Positions 219 to 62,897 of a DNA stretch of 64,000 nucleotides are shown in pieces. Every line of letters begins with the position of its first letter. The first letter of the stretch is position 1. The DNA comes from Escherichia phage F2. The stretch lies in the sequence record NC_054913.1; one strand, written 5' to 3'. Both the position numbers and the translations under genes were made by a program. Below the pieces are notes generated by a model, which made no database searches, was not told the DNA's origin, and worked only from the letters and a program-made list of their open reading frames with translations.

Positions 219-278
219 TGGTTTACAACATGGTGGAGTTGTGATACTATAACTCTACCAACAAATGAGGAAATAGAA

Positions 279-3532: not shown

Positions 3533-3712
3533 ATGGCAAAACAAGCTAAAGCAAAGAAAGCAGTTGAAAAGAAAGTTGATGGTACCTCTAAACGCGCTGG
3601 ATACAAGCGTGGGTCGAACTCTCGTATTAATCAAACAGTTGAGAAGATCATGCGCAGAGCACGTGCAGTTCTTCGAGATGATGCTTCTCGTTTTGGAAAG
3701 GTTGTTGCATAA
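3533..3712 (+). CDS. small highly basic protein (59 aa), not in the ORF track
   Basis: ATG at 3533; translation MAKQAKAKKAVEKKVDGTSKRAGYKRGSNSRINQTVEKIMRRARAVLRDDASRFGKVVA; followed by a terminator hairpin. Confidence 0.45.
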   Translation: MAKQAKAKKAVEKKVDGTSKRAGYKRGSNSRINQTVEKIMRRARAVLRDDASRFGKVVA

Positions 3713-3717
3713 TTTTA

Positions 3718-3740
3718 GGGAGACTTCGGTCTCCCTTTTG
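3718..3740 (+). terminator. rho-independent terminator hairpin
   Basis: GGGAGAC-TTCG-GTCTCCC followed by TTTTG. Confidence 0.6.
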
Positions 3741-3772: not shown

Positions 3773-3801
3773 GTTTACTCTCCTGTAGGATGTGTTACTA
3801 T
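3773..3801 (+). promoter_or_regulatory. T4-type early promoter
   Basis: GTTTAC at 3773-3778, 17-bp spacer, TACTAT at 3796-3801; downstream block shared with the other early promoters. Confidence 0.55.
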
Positions 3802-3842: not shown

Positions 3843-4211
3843 ATGAAAATCAATCTGAACTCATACATCAAATGTAAAGACCACGACGGTTATAAAGCTA
3901 TCGAAATTAAAGAATTCCAGTGGATGTTATACAAAGAGCAATTTGAGTTCGTAGGTTGTATGACCCCTGAAGGTCCTTCAGATGATTTCTCTTGGAAAAT
4001 TGTGTTAGCAAACTTTTTCACAGGTGACACATACGAATTAAAAACTATTATTACCGGTAAAATTCGTTCAGAAACATATGTTGACGAAGAAACTGGTTAC
4101 TCTGAAGATGTTACATGGTATCAAAATGGACGCATTACAGCAGATAACCTGATCGAAAAAATGAAAGCCAAAGGTGTTTTAAATTTAGACAATTGGATTA
4201 AAGTTGCATAA
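3843..4211 (+). CDS. hypothetical protein (ORFan, 122 aa)
   Basis: ORF with RBS GGAGAATAAAATG and its own early promoter. Confidence 0.55.
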   Translation: MKINLNSYIKCKDHDGYKAIEIKEFQWMLYKEQFEFVGCMTPEGPSDDFSWKIVLANFFTGDTYELKTIITGKIRSETYVDEETGYSEDVTWYQNGRITADNLIEKMKAKGVLNLDNWIKVA

Positions 4212-4215
4212 AACA

Positions 4216-4255
4216 GTTTACTTTGGTACAGGTTATGTTATTATAGACCTGTACC
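4216..4255 (+). promoter_or_regulatory. T4-type early promoter with stem-loop (PeSL-like)
   Basis: GTTTAC at 4216-4221, 17-bp spacer, TATTAT at 4239-4244; perfect 8-bp inverted repeat GGTACAGG (4225-4232) / CCTGTACC (4248-4255). Confidence 0.6.
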
Positions 4256-4285
4256 AACAAACAACTTAAACATCTGGAGAATAAA

Positions 4286-4651
4286 ATGAACTACACCAAC
4301 TTCGAACGCAAATATGTTTCTAACGGTATCGCTGGTTCTATCGATATGGTTTGTTTGTGGAAGCATAAAAATGGTTCAGTATGTGAAATTGAGCAGTGCA
4401 TGACTCCTAATTATGTTTATATGCGATTTGAAAATGGCATCACTGTTTCAATCACGATGGAAGGTTCCAACTTCAAAATTGCATTAGATGACGATTTCCG
4501 TCAACGTGATTTAGGTACTCATCCTTGCTGGAACGGTGTTAATCGTAAACTTCTGGTTAAAACTTGGATTCGTCATATCCTGAGTAACCGAGCTAAACCT
4601 GAACATCTCGAAGCAATCTTTGATGTAGTTCTTAACGAATTCGATATCTAA
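4286..4651 (+). CDS. hypothetical protein (ORFan, 121 aa)
   Basis: ORF with RBS GGAGAATAAAATG and its own promoter and hairpin. Confidence 0.55.
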   Translation: MNYTNFERKYVSNGIAGSIDMVCLWKHKNGSVCEIEQCMTPNYVYMRFENGITVSITMEGSNFKIALDDDFRQRDLGTHPCWNGVNRKLLVKTWIRHILSNRAKPEHLEAIFDVVLNEFDI

Positions 4652-4686: not shown

Positions 4687-5301
4687 ATGTTTAAAGTTAA
4701 TACTTTTTATAAAATGAATTTTAAAAATGGGGATATTACTCCACGCCTTAAAAACATGTTCTCATATGACCTTATCGAGCCTTTTGAAGTTTTAGAAGTT
4801 ACTGATGCCGGCTCGGTTTGTGAAATTAGAACTTCTGAAGGTAAAATTTATCAGGCAGGTGTTGGTAAATTCAGTAATTGTTTTACTTTAATATTCTCGA
4901 CCGATTTAGATGAGCATTTTATTGAATGTCCTAACCCTAAGGTCCACGAAGTTCCACATCAAGAAACTAAGAAAAATGGCCCGCACGAATATACGAAGGT
5001 TGAAACTCCTCACGGCGTGATGTGGCGTCATAACTCTCCTTTTGGAAGTAAAGGAACATTTGCTCAACCGTCTAAACCGTATGACGATGAAAAATACATC
5101 GTCGTCTTTTTATCTGAACAGGGTACTCAAGACAGTGGATGCCAACGTTCCGGTTTATTGAGTGAACTTGAAGCTCATAACCAAGCACGTGAATTCGTTG
5201 AGAAAAATCCTGGTTCTGAAGCTCTAGTCATGAAAGCAATTACTCAATATATCACTGCTCAACCTGTTGTTCATCCAGTAGAAATTAATTTCGTTAAGTA
5301 G
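4687..5301 (+). CDS. hypothetical protein (ORFan, 204 aa)
   Basis: long ORF with RBS GAGG before the ATG; no motif recognised. Confidence 0.55.
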   Translation: MFKVNTFYKMNFKNGDITPRLKNMFSYDLIEPFEVLEVTDAGSVCEIRTSEGKIYQAGVGKFSNCFTLIFSTDLDEHFIECPNPKVHEVPHQETKKNGPHEYTKVETPHGVMWRHNSPFGSKGTFAQPSKPYDDEKYIVVFLSEQGTQDSGCQRSGLLSELEAHNQAREFVEKNPGSEALVMKAITQYITAQPVVHPVEINFVK

Positions 5302-5331: not shown

Positions 5332-5355
5332 GATTTCTTTAGTAAGTGGAAAAAT

Positions 5356-5553
5356 ATGAAATTTTTAATAGCACAAACAGTTCAATTAAAAGGTGTTGGA
5401 ATTCCTGGGGTGATTTTTAAAGTTCTCCCTGAATTTAAAACCGGCGCTGGAATTATCAATGAAGCGTATGCTGTTCAATGGGTTGATTGGACTTCTGACA
5501 TACGTATGGGTAAAGAGTTATCTCCTATTAAAGGGTTGAAACATGTTGAATAA
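5356..5553 (+). CDS. hypothetical small protein (65 aa)
   Basis: ORF; no motif. Confidence 0.4.
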   Translation: MKFLIAQTVQLKGVGIPGVIFKVLPEFKTGAGIINEAYAVQWVDWTSDIRMGKELSPIKGLKHVE

Positions 5554-9030: not shown

Positions 9031-11118
9031 ATGTCTGAACAATTAAATGAAGTGTTTGAATCTGAAGGCAGTCTTCCTGTCGTCAATTTGAACCCTAAAG
9101 CTAAAGTTCCACAAGTCTGGAAAATTGGTGATATCGATACAAACATCGTAGTTCGCTTATTCTCTTACCTTTCTGAAGGCGATGCTGTAAAACAAGTTAA
9201 ACTTGGCGACAAATACGCTCATGTTGTTATTATGAGTCTGTCTGAAAAGGGTAATCTCGCTGAATTGAAAAATGGCCTTGGTCCTGCTCCTATTGATGCA
9301 ATCAACACCATTTTCAATACGGTATATGAACAGGTTAAAGCTCTTCGTATGGATGCAGTTCTGTTCCGGTTCCCTACCAAGAAATTGAAAGGACGTGGAC
9401 AACAGCTTCAAACTCTTCTTGCTCGTTTAGTTTCTACTAAAACTGGCGGTCGTTTTAAAGTATTGTCAGCAATGTATCAATTCACAGGTAAACACACCTA
9501 TGTGATGATGGTTCGTAAAAATGCCAACATTGAAGATATTAAAGGCATCCCTAACATTAACACAGAGTTGTACACGAAAGTAGATTCTGATGTTGGCGAA
9601 GTTTATGTGAGTAAAAAGACTGGTGAAATGGTCACCAAAGAAGCGGCTATCGCTGGTTCTATTGCTGCTGTAGAAGAAAAACGTAAAGATAAGCCTGTTA
9701 TTGCTCGTACTAAAATTTCTCGTCGTGCTATTGCAGCAAGTCAATCTTTAGAAGCTGACCGCCAAGAAGGTGAGTTATTCCAGAAATACGAAAATTCTGC
9801 TAAAGAAGTTAGTGGCCCAGCTACAGCCGAATTACTTCCTGAAGCATATGAAATCGTACTAGCCCAAGCATCGTCCACAGCAAAAGGCACTTTAGTTGCT
9901 GATATCGAAAATAAGATTTATAATCGTATTGATGAATCCTTTAGATTTGCTGATGAAGTTTCTTATGGTAGTGTTATTAAGCCAACTTTAGAAAAGTTTG
10001 CTAAGAAAATTAAAACTGAAAAAACAACATCTGTTAAAGCATTAGCTGCTTTTGTTGAAGCTGCAAATGAAATTGCAGACTCTATTAAAGACGAATGGTT
10101 TGAAGATTTTAGACGTGATAATTTCCAACTGGCCGACGACGTTTTAGCTGAAGTATCTGAAAAAACTTGGAAACAACGTAAATCAGCGTTCTTGTCTAAT
10201 GTGATGTATACTTATGCACGAGAATCGGCTAGAGGCACCTTTAATATAACAATGAATCGGGACCCTAAACAATACTCTGTTGCTGAAAAACGAGCTATTC
10301 GTGAATATGCCTCTTCTGCGTATACCGATATCAATAATATGTTGTTAGGTCGTTATAAACCAGATTTTTACGATGTTGCAGATGAAGATGAAGTTAAACG
10401 CGCTATTGATGGTCTTGATTCGGCGTTTTTAAATGGAGACCGTTTACCTGAAGGACTAACGTTATATAGAGCCCAGTCTATCAGAATGCCTATTTACGAA
10501 GCAATGGTTAAAAATAAGGTATTCTACTTCAGAAACTATGTTTCCACTTCACTAGCTCCTATTATTTTCGGTGGGTTTAAAGAGAACGTTGCCCTTGGAC
10601 TTGCTCCTGAAGAAGTTCGCAAAGAGCTTAACATTGACAATAATGACGAAGGTGTTACTATTTCTCCTAGTCAAGTAAGAACAGCTATGCATGCACCAGA
10701 CCAAATCCGTGTTAACGTTGGATGGGCTATTGATGGCGCCCATAAAGTTAACGTGATTTATCCTGGACAGTTGAGTAATCACCCTAATGAGCAAGAAATT
10801 ATTTTGCCTAGAGGCATTCTCTTGCAGATAAATAAAATTACGGATGCGTCATCTGACACTGGTGCAGGTTTAGAATCCAACCTTAAATTTATTCAAGCTG
10901 AAGTCATGTCCTCAGACCAGTTGGACGAAGTTGTCATTTACGATGGTGATGTTCTCATGGAAACAGGCGAGGTGGTTGCTATGACTGGTGAAATCGAATC
11001 AGATGAGCCGATATCGTTCTCCTCATTTGTAGAAAAAACTAGTGCTCCTAAAGGATTGAAATTGTTAGCATCTTTAATGGATTTAGAATCAGTTCCGTTT
11101 AAATTTGTCCAAGGATAG
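9031..11118 (+). CDS. alt: Alt-type ADP-ribosyltransferase (capsid-packaged, modifies host RNA polymerase)
   Basis: 695 aa versus T4 Alt 682; position between gene 30 and gene 54; ART motifs YRAQS (Arg), YVSTSLA (STS), QEIILPRG (catalytic Glu region). Confidence 0.75.
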   Translation: MSEQLNEVFESEGSLPVVNLNPKAKVPQVWKIGDIDTNIVVRLFSYLSEGDAVKQVKLGDKYAHVVIMSLSEKGNLAELKNGLGPAPIDAINTIFNTVYEQVKALRMDAVLFRFPTKKLKGRGQQLQTLLARLVSTKTGGRFKVLSAMYQFTGKHTYVMMVRKNANIEDIKGIPNINTELYTKVDSDVGEVYVSKKTGEMVTKEAAIAGSIAAVEEKRKDKPVIARTKISRRAIAASQSLEADRQEGELFQKYENSAKEVSGPATAELLPEAYEIVLAQASSTAKGTLVADIENKIYNRIDESFRFADEVSYGSVIKPTLEKFAKKIKTEKTTSVKALAAFVEAANEIADSIKDEWFEDFRRDNFQLADDVLAEVSEKTWKQRKSAFLSNVMYTYARESARGTFNITMNRDPKQYSVAEKRAIREYASSAYTDINNMLLGRYKPDFYDVADEDEVKRAIDGLDSAFLNGDRLPEGLTLYRAQSIRMPIYEAMVKNKVFYFRNYVSTSLAPIIFGGFKENVALGLAPEEVRKELNIDNNDEGVTISPSQVRTAMHAPDQIRVNVGWAIDGAHKVNVIYPGQLSNHPNEQEIILPRGILLQINKITDASSDTGAGLESNLKFIQAEVMSSDQLDEVVIYDGDVLMETGEVVAMTGEIESDEPISFSSFVEKTSAPKGLKLLASLMDLESVPFKFVQG

Positions 11119-11470: not shown

Positions 11471-11479
11471 ACCCCTAAA

Positions 11480-11502
11480 GGGAGACGTTGTCTCCCTTTT
11501 TC
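11480..11502. terminator. bidirectional terminator hairpin between convergent genes
   Basis: GGGAGAC-GTT-GTCTCCC followed by TTTTTC on +, A-run on the other strand. Confidence 0.55.
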
Positions 11503-27162: not shown

Positions 27163-27172
27163 AAACAAGAAT

Positions 27173-27190
27173 GGGAGACCGGAGTCTCCC
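27173..27190. terminator. hairpin between convergent genes (putative terminator)
   Basis: GGGAGAC-CGGA-GTCTCCC. Confidence 0.45.
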
Positions 27191-27219
27191 ATAAGGTTAT
27201 GTATTTTAACGTTAAAGCA

Positions 27220-60094: not shown

Positions 60095-60780
<686 letters not shown>

Positions 60781-60793
60781 TTTTCACAAAACA

Positions 60794-60829
60794 GTTTACA
60801 TAAGGATGATGGTGTGTTACTATCATCCT
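60794..60829 (+). promoter_or_regulatory. T4-type early promoter with stem-loop (PeSL-like)
   Basis: GTTTAC at 60794-60799, TACTAT at 60818-60823; 8-bp inverted repeat AGGATGAT / ATCATCCT around the -10. Confidence 0.6.
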
Positions 60830-60857
60830 ATCAAATAAACGACCTCAAGGAAATAAA

Positions 60858-61145
60858 ATGAAAACCTATAAAGAATTTATATCACCTGTTGCTAACGTTT
60901 CTACTCTGACCGAAGCAACCCTTACTTCCGAAGTTATTAAAGCAAATAAAGGACGTGAGGGTAAACCAATGATTAGTCTGGTTGACGGCGAAGAAGTAAA
61001 AGGTACTGTTTACTTAGGGGATGGATGGTCTGCTAAGAAAGATGGCGCTACTATTGTTATCTCTCCGGCTGAAGAGACTGCACTGTTTAAAGCTAAGCAT
61101 ATTTCTGTAGCTCAGCTTAAAATTATTGCAAAAACTCTTCTGTAA
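60858..61145 (+). CDS. internal-protein-like capsid-packaged protein
   Basis: 95 aa; N-terminus MKTYKEFISPVANVSTLTE matches the T4 internal-protein capsid-targeting sequence (MKTYQEFIAE, recalled) and an L-x-E protease-site pattern. Confidence 0.6.
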   Translation: MKTYKEFISPVANVSTLTEATLTSEVIKANKGREGKPMISLVDGEEVKGTVYLGDGWSAKKDGATIVISPAEETALFKAKHISVAQLKIIAKTLL

Positions 61146-61149
61146 AGTA

Positions 61150-61186
61150 GTTTACATGCTGATAGGACTATGTTATAGTAGTCCTA
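61150..61186 (+). promoter_or_regulatory. T4-type early promoter with stem-loop (PeSL-like)
   Basis: GTTTAC at 61150-61155, TATAGT at 61174-61179; perfect 9-bp inverted repeat ATAGGACTA / TAGTCCTAT. Confidence 0.6.
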
Positions 61187-61216
61187 TCAAATCAAATGAG
61201 TAAATGGAGAAATAAA

Positions 61217-61402
61217 ATGAAACGCGCTGAACTGATTCGTAATGTTGCTGTAGTAATTGCTTCAATGGCTTTTAGTTTTTCGATGTTTGTAGGATTCATT
61301 TGTGGACTACTGACAACAACAGAAAATTCTATCTCATTGGTAGTAGCATTTCTAATCGGTTTAATCGCTATCGTTATGGATAAAATTTCTAAAGGTGAAT
61401 AG
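61217..61402 (+). CDS. small membrane protein (61 aa, two predicted TM helices)
   Basis: ATG 61217 after GGAGAAATAAAATG; hydrophobic stretches VAVVIASMAFSFSMFVGFICGLL and LVVAFLIGLIAIVM. Confidence 0.45.
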   Translation: MKRAELIRNVAVVIASMAFSFSMFVGFICGLLTTTENSISLVVAFLIGLIAIVMDKISKGE

Positions 61403-61403
61403 A

Positions 61404-61778
61404 ATGTATAAAGTGTACGCGGATTATCAGGCTAATCCATCTGAAAAGCCAGATTGCCAAATTGGATGGGCTCATGATACCCTGCTTGAAGCAGTAGATG
61501 CTGCTCAAAAATTAGGATATAGTTATGTGGATATTGTTCAACCTGGTGGAACAGTTATTACTCTTGAAGAGTTTAATAATATTAAACCAAACTTTTTACT
61601 TTTTGCAGGTGATAATTATTATCCTCGTGGTGGATATGCTGATTTAATCGCGAAAGCCGCTACTGAAGATGAATTACGCCAAATTATTGAAGACAATAAA
61701 TCAAAACGATTTGGCGATAGTTTTGACTGGTGGCAAATCGTAAATGCCCATACACATACTATTGTTGATAAAGGTTAA
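61404..61778 (+). CDS. hypothetical protein (124 aa)
   Basis: ATG 61404 after AAAGGTG; ORF. Confidence 0.5.
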   Translation: MYKVYADYQANPSEKPDCQIGWAHDTLLEAVDAAQKLGYSYVDIVQPGGTVITLEEFNNIKPNFLLFAGDNYYPRGGYADLIAKAATEDELRQIIEDNKSKRFGDSFDWWQIVNAHTHTIVDKG

Positions 61779-62670: not shown

Positions 62671-62745
62671 GGCCCTGTAGCTCAATGGGAGAGCTGTCAG
62701 CTCATAACTGATAGGTAGCTGGATCGAAACCAGCCAGGGCCACCA
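62671..62745 (+). tRNA. tRNA with CAU anticodon (Met, or lysidine-modified Ile2)
   Basis: manual cloverleaf: acceptor GGCCCTG/CAGGGCC, D arm GCTC/GAGC, anticodon loop CTCATAA, T arm GCTGG-ATCGAAA-CCAGC, encoded CCA. Confidence 0.8.
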
Positions 62746-62751
62746 AACAAA

Positions 62752-62823
62752 TGGTGCATCGTATAAAGGTTATTACGGGGAGCTGTTAACTCCTTTATCT
62801 TGGTTCGAGTCCAAGTGCGCCAG
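62752..62823 (+). tRNA. tRNA-Asn (GUU anticodon), putative
   Basis: manual fold: acceptor TGGTGCA/TGCGCCA with one G-U pair, anticodon loop CTGTTAA, T arm CTTGG-TTCGAGT-CCAAG; D stem has one mismatch. Confidence 0.55.
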
Positions 62824-62868
62824 TAATTTAAACGAAGTAAATTAAGTGCTCTATCCAAATAATAAATA

Positions 62869-62887
62869 CTCCTATATTTTATAGGAG
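62869..62887 (+). promoter_or_regulatory. RBS-sequestering hairpin upstream of the endonuclease gene
   Basis: CTCCTATA-TTT-TATAGGAG perfect 8-bp stem containing the Shine-Dalgarno GGAG; AATAAATA late-promoter-like box at 62861-62868. Confidence 0.5.
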
Positions 62888-62897
62888 ATAATTGGTA

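Follow-up and report, generated by a model that had tools for sequence, protein, structure and literature searches.

A T4-type early promoter with an inverted repeat around its -10 element between genes 30.8 and 30.7 of an RB69-like coliphage, a probable member of the PeSL cassettes

In the 64,000-nucleotide stretch of Escherichia phage F2 DNA analysed here (the window), a T4-type early promoter beginning at position 4216, between the homologues of T4 genes 30.8 and 30.7, carries its -10 element in the loop of a perfect inverted repeat. This element is very probably of the PeSL kind (early promoter plus stem-loop), in which the stem-loop lies mostly between the -35 and -10 elements or overlaps the -10 element (PMC2839356, PMC4122927). 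Overall, it is considered probable that the element is a PeSL-type composite, which would combine a promoter, a hairpin insulator formed in read-through RNA, and a recombination linker between 30.8 and 30.7. Cassettes of this kind have been described before (Arbiol 2010; Comeau 2014), and a 2006 study had already predicted the promoter in RB69; the hairpin in RB69-like phages is a further example. A search of the literature found no report of these hairpins, or of PeSLs, in RB69-like phages.

Genomic Context of the Element

The window belongs to a Mosigvirus, an RB69-like T4-type coliphage with approximately 99% identity to HX01, JS09, and JQD51. The unit upstream of the element is closed after gene 30.9 by a canonical intrinsic terminator (3717..3736, plus strand; AGGGAGAC-ttcg-GTCTCCCT followed by TTTG). 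The TransTerm list published for RB69 includes its counterpart between 30.9 and 30.8, and no terminator between 30.8 and 30.7 (PMC1524935). The homologue of gene 30.8 (3843..4211, plus strand; 122 aa; Pfam Phage_30_8, E 7e-44) is a hypervariable allele, and the identity of its protein ranges from 37 to 88% at the amino acid level among relatives (57% to RB69). The homologue of gene 30.7 (4286..4651, plus strand; 121 aa; Pfam Phage_T4_Gp30_7, E 1e-51), which the 4216 promoter would drive, encodes a protein with 88-96% identity among relatives. The step from variable 30.8 to conserved 30.7 falls exactly on the promoter.

Several other features were recorded in the window. A DAHP synthase gene at 636-1628 (Pfam DAHP_synth_1, E 5e-75) is located between a cd.2-like ORF and the dCMP deaminase gene; because cd.2 directly adjoins cd in RB69, it is regarded as an inserted metabolic gene of the HX01 group. 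Three tRNA genes (Met-CAT, Asn-GTT, and Arg-TCT) lie within 62671-63624, and an Rfam scan of the window returned these three tRNAs only, with no match at any hairpin or promoter element. Between the second and third tRNA genes there is a 223-aa ORF (62892-63563), for which DUF559 scored just over the Pfam cutoff and the RAP domain just under it, and which may be an endonuclease-like mobile gene. In addition, the terminator-type hairpins at 3717-3736, 11477-11499, and 27171-27192 have the near-identical stem GGGAGAC / GTCTCCC, and further stems beginning with GGGAG (AGGGAGC and GGGAGAC) are found just upstream of early promoters in HX01. These GGGAG-stem terminators look like a repeated terminator family.

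Structure of the Promoter and Its Predicted Start Site

All parts of the element are on the plus strand. The -35 element GTTTAC (4216..4221) directly follows the A-rich stretch CATAAAACA and is separated by a 17-nt spacer from the -10 element TATTAT (4239..4244), which is preceded by TG. The 5' arm of the inverted repeat, TTGGTACAGGT (4223..4233), is within the spacer, and the 3' arm, ACCTGTACCAA (4247..4257), spans the discriminator and the predicted start G4251. In the preliminary description, an 8-bp stem, GGTACAGG/CCTGTACC, was reported to bracket the -10 element; its location and motifs are correct, but the repeat is longer, being perfect over 11 bp (4223-4233 / 4247-4257; 5 of the 11 pairs are G-C) with a 13-nt loop that contains the -10 element. 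The stop codon of 30.8 (TAA, 4209-4211) is located within GCATAAAACA, immediately 5' of GTTTAC and 12 nt ahead of the hairpin. The sequence after the stem, CAAACAACTTAAAC, is without a T-run, and the Shine-Dalgarno (SD) sequence and start codon of 30.7 (GGAG 4275-4278 and ATG 4286, together 4275..4288) lie at least 17 nt past the hairpin and are not sequestered.

The interpretation of GTTTAC, the 17-bp spacer, and TATTAT as a T4-type early promoter, which had been proposed at the outset, is borne out by both enrichment and orthology. The pattern GTTTAC-N17/18-TANNNT occurs 10 times in the window versus 2.06 +/- 1.45 times in shuffled sequences, and none of 100 shuffles reached 10. A generic sigma-70 scan of the window showed no enrichment (37 sites versus 35 expected), so the T4-type motif is the informative one. 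The RB69 orthologue (GTTTACTTTGGTACAGG..CCTGTACCAA, between 30.8 and 30.7) is the predicted early promoter Pe:131670 (Nolan et al. 2006, PMC1524935, Additional file 3), and this site has the same promoter and stem sequence as position 4216 of the window. A hairpin, stem-loop, or inverted repeat is nowhere mentioned in that paper (PMC1524935). These data establish GTTTAC-N17-TATTAT, at the level of sequence, as a T4-type early promoter, which would be read by the host sigma-70 RNA polymerase.

A chance origin of the 4216 repeat can be excluded. Perfect stems of at least 11 bp are present in just 0.18% of random 70-nt windows, and every other perfect inverted repeat in the 64 kb (loops of 3-20 nt) is shorter than the 4216 repeat and that at 61160-61189. 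The hairpin folds with -18.0 kcal/mol as RNA (z -4.7) and with -10 kcal/mol as DNA (z -4.6), and the DNA folds of both strands are significant (z -4.6 and -4.0).

In the published RB69 model of Pe:131670, the 3' end (the putative start) corresponds to the G of GTTTAC + 35, which is G4251 of the window (PMC1524935). The 30.7 transcript should thus start at approximately G4251 with an unstructured leader, and the predicted fold of RNA from 4251 is indeed unstructured (z +0.46). Relative to this start, the 5' arm occupies -29 to -16, in the spacer, the 3' arm -5 to +8, the SD sequence +25, and the ATG +36. With the predicted start falling within the 3' arm, transcripts from this promoter would be without the 5' arm and could not form the hairpin; the -18 kcal/mol structure would be possible only in RNA that reads through from the promoter at 3773 across 30.8. 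In the read-through fold, the hairpin does not reach the 30.7 SD sequence, which is unpaired, and since this sequence is untouched, the hairpin cannot block translation directly. We infer both the start site and the read-through for this phage; a literature search for genome-wide datasets of transcription start sites (TSS) or 3' ends in T4 or RB69 found none.

Related Promoters in the Window

Hairpins are present in four of the eight T4-type promoters of the window (those at 221, 4216, 60794, and 61150). All four belong to the early blocks, at 1-11.5 kb and 59-64 kb, and the late block (12-59 kb) has none. A search of the window for copies combined with RNA folding, similar to the whole-genome check suggested in the preliminary description, confirmed the members at 60794 and 61150, dropped a proposed one at 11118, and added the one at 221. 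The 60794 promoter (60794..60829, plus strand; GTTTAC 60794-60799, TACTAT 60818-60823) has the same layout and, as described, a perfect 8-bp stem (60803-60810 / 60822-60829), which may also be drawn as 12 RNA pairs (60803-60814 / 60818-60829; z -4.0). The same layout is seen in the 61150 promoter (61150..61189, plus strand; GTTTAC 61150-61155, TATAGT 61174-61179; predicted TSS A61186; z -5.2), for which a 9-bp stem had been given; the stem is in fact perfect over 11 bp (61160-61170 / 61179-61189). The supposed imperfect member at 11118 has a stem of only 5 bp, and its fold is no better than those of shuffled sequences (z +0.68).

The promoter at 221 (221..260, plus strand; GTTTAC 221-226, TACTAT 245-250), which was absent from the initial list, is located upstream of the cd.2-like ORF at 279-515, and its RB69 counterpart is Pe:134561 (PMC1524935). 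Its RNA stem (231-243 / 248-260) has 13 pairs, including 3 G.U pairs, and folds with -16.9 kcal/mol in the sense orientation (z -4.5) versus -8.1 kcal/mol in the antisense orientation (z -0.6); as DNA, the stem is weak (z -2.0 and -0.9). A search for relatives with the gene downstream of 221 retrieved identical promoters only, which provide no covariation information.

The downstream block said to be shared by 3773 and 26174, extending from the -10 element to the TSS (TATAGAC..), was found at both positions, where folding detected no hairpin (z +0.40 and +0.55). The hairpin-less T4-type early promoter at 3773 (3773..3801, plus strand) has TATAGAC(T/C)TGTACCA in common with 4216. It matches RB69 Pe:132117 by position upstream of 30.8, and no GTTTAC-type motif was recovered at that RB69 site. 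In general, the promoters form sequence sub-families that share the block from the -10 element to the TSS.

Evidence for Selection on the Pairing

Forty-five GTTTAC-type promoters with an SD sequence and an ATG downstream were collected from the window and the rest of the HX01 genome, and pairing was measured between each spacer and the downstream sequence from the -10 element to the ATG. Such pairing was significant (p<0.05 against spacer shuffles) in 47% of the promoters, and about 21 of the 45 have hairpins. The promoters' own pairings have a mean of -10.8 kcal/mol, versus -7.5 +/- 0.39 kcal/mol when spacers and downstream sequences are permuted across promoters (0/5000). In T4, the same spacer pairing was observed in three of nine promoters (first 45 kb).

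Two layouts could be distinguished. In class A, which includes all four elements of the window, the 3' arm is placed around the start site. In class B, which is found outside the window only (for example, at the regB promoter), an anti-SD sequence, TTCTCCTC, at the start of the spacer pairs with the SD sequence of the downstream gene. This sequence directly follows the -35 element in many early promoters outside the window, with 10-15 bp of pairing to the downstream SD sequence; examples are L017:10659-10718 (HX01 regB), L018:14771, L018:1849, and L017:7551, as well as positions of about 8218 and 20612 in the T4 record. At the regB promoters of diverse T4-like phages, the helix between spacer and SD sequence is kept via compensatory changes. 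No description of spacer/SD pairing at early promoters was found in the literature searched. The regB promoter of two distant relatives (L044 and L045, about 225-300) also has a G/C-rich stem, GGGCCAT/ATGGCCC, that tightly brackets the -10 element; it resembles RB49-type PeSL stems, and a short anti-SD pairing is present as well.

Covariation evidence comes from the sister elements, the 4216 stem itself being nearly invariant. When the 61150 element is compared with its orthologues and in-register paralogues, both sides have changed in 7 of the 11 stem pairs. The alignment contains 16 cells with double changes versus 6.0 +/- 1.9 in shuffles (0/500), and 90% of its cells are paired, versus 25-60% when the partner is slid. 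One of the changes, from GATAGG/CCTATC to GGTAGG/CCTACC, leads from an A-U to a G-C pair via a G.U intermediate. In 15 orthologues of the 4216 element, the core GGTACAGG/CCTGTACC is invariant except for one C-to-T change that gives a G.U pair; the loop and leader positions vary, and both flanks are mosaic. A lack of conservation in close relatives, which had been named at the outset as grounds for giving up the proposal, is contradicted by the retention of this 8-bp core in 15 relatives. In a distant orthologue (L016), a different repeat is found, and its 5' arm is once more in the spacer. Taken together, the comparisons show that the pairing is under selection.

The observations are suggestive of an action of the pairing at the RNA rather than the DNA level. 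Folds in the sense orientation exceed those in the antisense orientation in stability (Wilcoxon p = 0.035), the 221 stem is sense-specific, and G.U intermediates occur among orthologues. When internal mismatches were counted in a strand-symmetric way, the numbers (3 G.T versus 1 A.C) were too small to prove pairing at the RNA level.

Mosaic Boundaries at the Promoter Cassettes

Comparison with relatives revealed that homology is repeatedly interrupted next to the element. With four relatives (L002, L004, L007, and L009), homology ends at 3700 and resumes exactly at 4216, and with five others (L005, L006, L008, L011, and L015), it ends at 3859 (3864 for L011 and 3849 for L015) and resumes at 4217. 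Most of the 15 relatives show a further gap in homology, from 4693 to 5353-5356, whose downstream edge adjoins the hairpin-less promoter at 5301. The 204-aa ORF at 4687-5301 (phrog_17531) is absent or replaced in nearly all of the 15 relatives.

A similar junction was found in the second early block. A 356-bp cassette (60801..61156, plus strand), with direct GTTTACA repeats (two -35 elements) at its ends, is absent from two IMG/VR relatives (L022 and L023). The second of these is collinear with 60260-60800 and 61150-61456, with a 7-nt overlap (GTTTACA) between the blocks; the window therefore carries a 356-bp cassette bounded by two -35 elements. The gene in the cassette (60858-61145) encodes an ipI-like internal virion protein (phrog_4363); an IMG/VR search with this ORF found no relatives. 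The same junction pattern is described in the PeSL papers, which also cite the plasticity of the IP locus, the site of the 356-bp cassette (PMC2839356, PMC4122927).

These alignments firmly place the points where homology with relatives starts or stops at the conserved promoter cassette. It thus serves as a homologous linker at which recombination exchanges the neighbouring gene cassettes. The earlier suggestion that such cassettes mediate the shuffling of ORFans holds with respect to the breakpoints, which lie on the element, but not with respect to its flanks, since Pfam identifies 30.8 and 30.7 as conserved T4-family genes.

Possible Function and Alternative Explanations

In the composite, the 4216 element would be the early promoter of 30.7, and the hairpin would form 12 nt past the 30.8 stop codon in read-through RNA that starts at 3773 and crosses 30.8. 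There, it may serve as an intercistronic insulator that attenuates read-through, comparable to the stem-loop of one RB49 PeSL, which cut lacZ expression as much as rrnB T1 (PMC2839356). It may also be a 3'-terminal barrier that protects the 30.8 mRNA after a downstream cut, for example by RegB at GGAG 4275-4278; attenuation, a decay barrier, or both could be involved. In that case, 30.7 would be expressed chiefly from its own early promoter. This insulator mechanism is preferred, although we rate it at about an even chance. The lack of a U-tract after the stem counts against it, as does the fact that the hairpin leaves the SD sequence unaffected, and any termination would have to be non-canonical. 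A crude first count had seemed to suggest that hairpins are absent where a canonical terminator precedes the promoter; this was rejected once objective criteria were applied (3/7 versus 22/47, Fisher p = 1.0). As a pure read-through insulator predicts such an anticorrelation between hairpin and terminator, its absence is evidence against that form of the mechanism.

Five other explanations were considered, all of which are less well supported than the PeSL composite. The stem-loop might be an efficient factor-independent terminator for the upstream gene with no other role, as the PeSL papers propose. Its stability (-18 kcal/mol), its position 12 nt after the 30.8 stop codon, and the lacZ reduction by the RB49 stem-loop (PMC2839356) would agree with this, but none of the four hairpins in the window is followed by a T/U tract or was called in a scan for terminator-like structures, whereas the true terminators of the window (3717, 11477, 15270, and 24821) have tetraloops and T-runs. 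Moreover, TransTerm found none at the RB69 30.8/30.7 site (PMC1524935), and some promoters bear both a canonical terminator and an embedded hairpin; thus, a terminator alone is an unlikely answer. A little less likely again is a role of the inverted repeat at the DNA level, in which single-stranded or supercoiled DNA would fold into a hairpin or cruciform that is bound by recombination or repair proteins and forms a structure-specific recombination hotspot. The homology breakpoints at the elements and the significant DNA folds on both strands point in this direction, and a stem-binding recombination protein was speculated on by Arbiol et al. (PMC2839356). The mapped junctions, however, are at the -35 hexamer (GTTTAC/GTTTACA) and not at the stem, and the hairpin-less promoters at 3773 and 5301 coincide with breakpoints too. 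In addition, variant pairs are mostly G.U, sense folds exceed antisense folds in stability, and the 221 stem is weak as DNA.

The remaining explanations appear still less probable. That the palindrome is an operator, at which a dimeric phage or host protein shuts off early promoters, had been raised in the preliminary description; the repeat brackets the -10 element, and the mechanism of early-promoter shut-off in T4 is not fully understood (PMC3014915). Yet the stems GGTACAGG, AGGATGAT, GATAGGACT, and GGTGGAGTT have no sequence in common, they evolve by compensatory change such that pairing rather than sequence is conserved, and about half of the early promoters are without any repeat, all of which makes a common operator very improbable. 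To a similar degree, it is hard to credit that the repeat has no function and arose incidentally, for instance through a template-switch mutation or because the promoters descend from a common ancestor. Common descent would fit the sub-families sharing the block from the -10 element to the TSS, but own pairings beat cross-promoter pairings in every permutation, compensatory changes are present, and the stem core is invariant, unlike loop and leader positions. The other role that had been envisaged for the stem, as a 5'-UTR structure in the transcript made from this promoter, is the most remote of the five. The hairpin does lie upstream of the 30.7 ribosome binding site, but the 5' arm is outside the transcript, given the predicted start at 4251 within the 3' arm, and RNA from that start is unstructured; this geometry excludes the idea unless the TSS differs from where every T4-type model puts it. 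An N4-like hairpin promoter was rejected along with the operator and 5'-UTR ideas, in view of how much the stems differ in sequence, where the TSS is placed, and how clearly the sigma-70 consensus is recognisable.

Besides the PeSL composite, a broader and more tentative idea, to which we give somewhat less than an even chance, is that spacer-embedded hairpins are more than terminators or recombination linkers, namely a genome-wide RNA device of T-even phages, by which read-through and locally initiated RNAs of the same gene would fold differently. It would include the anti-SD class, found at regB, motB.2, and other genes of HX01 and T4, in which the spacer pairs with the GGAG of the downstream gene; both translation of that gene and its exposure to RegB would then be confined to transcripts initiated at the gene's own early promoter. 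It would also include the insulating variant of the 4216 type, in which the hairpin would separate neighbouring cistrons without touching the SD sequence. If true, many early genes would share the mechanism known from the late genes e, soc, 49, and I-TevI. Roughly one in two early genes would then be able to tell its own transcript from read-through, and temporal control in this classic model would have a further, simple level. The cassettes themselves are exchange junctions for small early genes in T4-type phages, including genes for internal proteins, host takeover, and anti-defence, and their recognition is helpful in predicting the transcription units and the mosaic boundaries of RB69-group therapeutic coliphages.

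Comparison with Known Systems

The match to PeSL cassettes proposed for the 4216 element extends to every PeSL feature that can be examined in a sequence. It has an early promoter with a spacer within 17 +/- 1 nt and the consensus of the lineage, an AT-rich stretch upstream of the -35 element that holds the stop codon of the upstream gene, a stable stem-loop overlapping the promoter, and an SD sequence and start codon (GGAG 4275-4278 and ATG 4286) at the 3' end. It is also repeated in early/hyperplastic regions, as indicated by the four hairpin promoters of the window, and coincides with indel or replacement junctions among close relatives (4216/4217 and the GTTTACA-bounded 356-bp cassette). 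The order of stop codon, early promoter, stem-loop, SD sequence, and ATG is the same as in the PeSLs of Arbiol et al. 2010 (PMC2839356) and Comeau et al. 2014 (PMC4122927). On the other hand, the PeSLs of RB49 and phi1 have G(n)..C(n) stems, whereas the stems of the window contain no such runs and vary between sites; in PST and T4, the stem is just upstream of the promoter, and PeSLs are also known from nt-1 and KVP40. PeSLs flank ORFans, unlike the 4216 element with its conserved neighbours. The PeSL kind further involves attenuation or termination of upstream transcription, strong promoter activity in vivo, and mini-circles formed between neighbouring elements; the 4216 element is likened to it on the basis of sequence.

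With respect to terminators, the 4216 hairpin resembles the intrinsic type in being stable and located just after a stop codon, but it differs in the lack of a U-tract, the 13-nt loop, and the low share of G-C pairs (5 of 11), where a G+C-rich stem, a short loop, and a U-tract would be expected. Another related system is the switch of T4 genes e, soc, 49, and I-TevI, in which the promoter starts inside the hairpin and only longer read-through RNAs fold (reviewed in PMC3014915). The same logic would apply to the 4216 element, whose local transcripts would be without the 5' arm; here, the start inside the hairpin follows from promoter geometry and the published RB69 model only. The T4 genes differ in having late promoters and a sequestered SD sequence or AUG, whereas the 4216 promoter is of the early type and its SD sequence is not sequestered, being 17 nt outside the stem. 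In this respect, the 4216 element is also unlike other early promoters of HX01 and T4, such as that of regB, in which the spacer pairs with the SD sequence.
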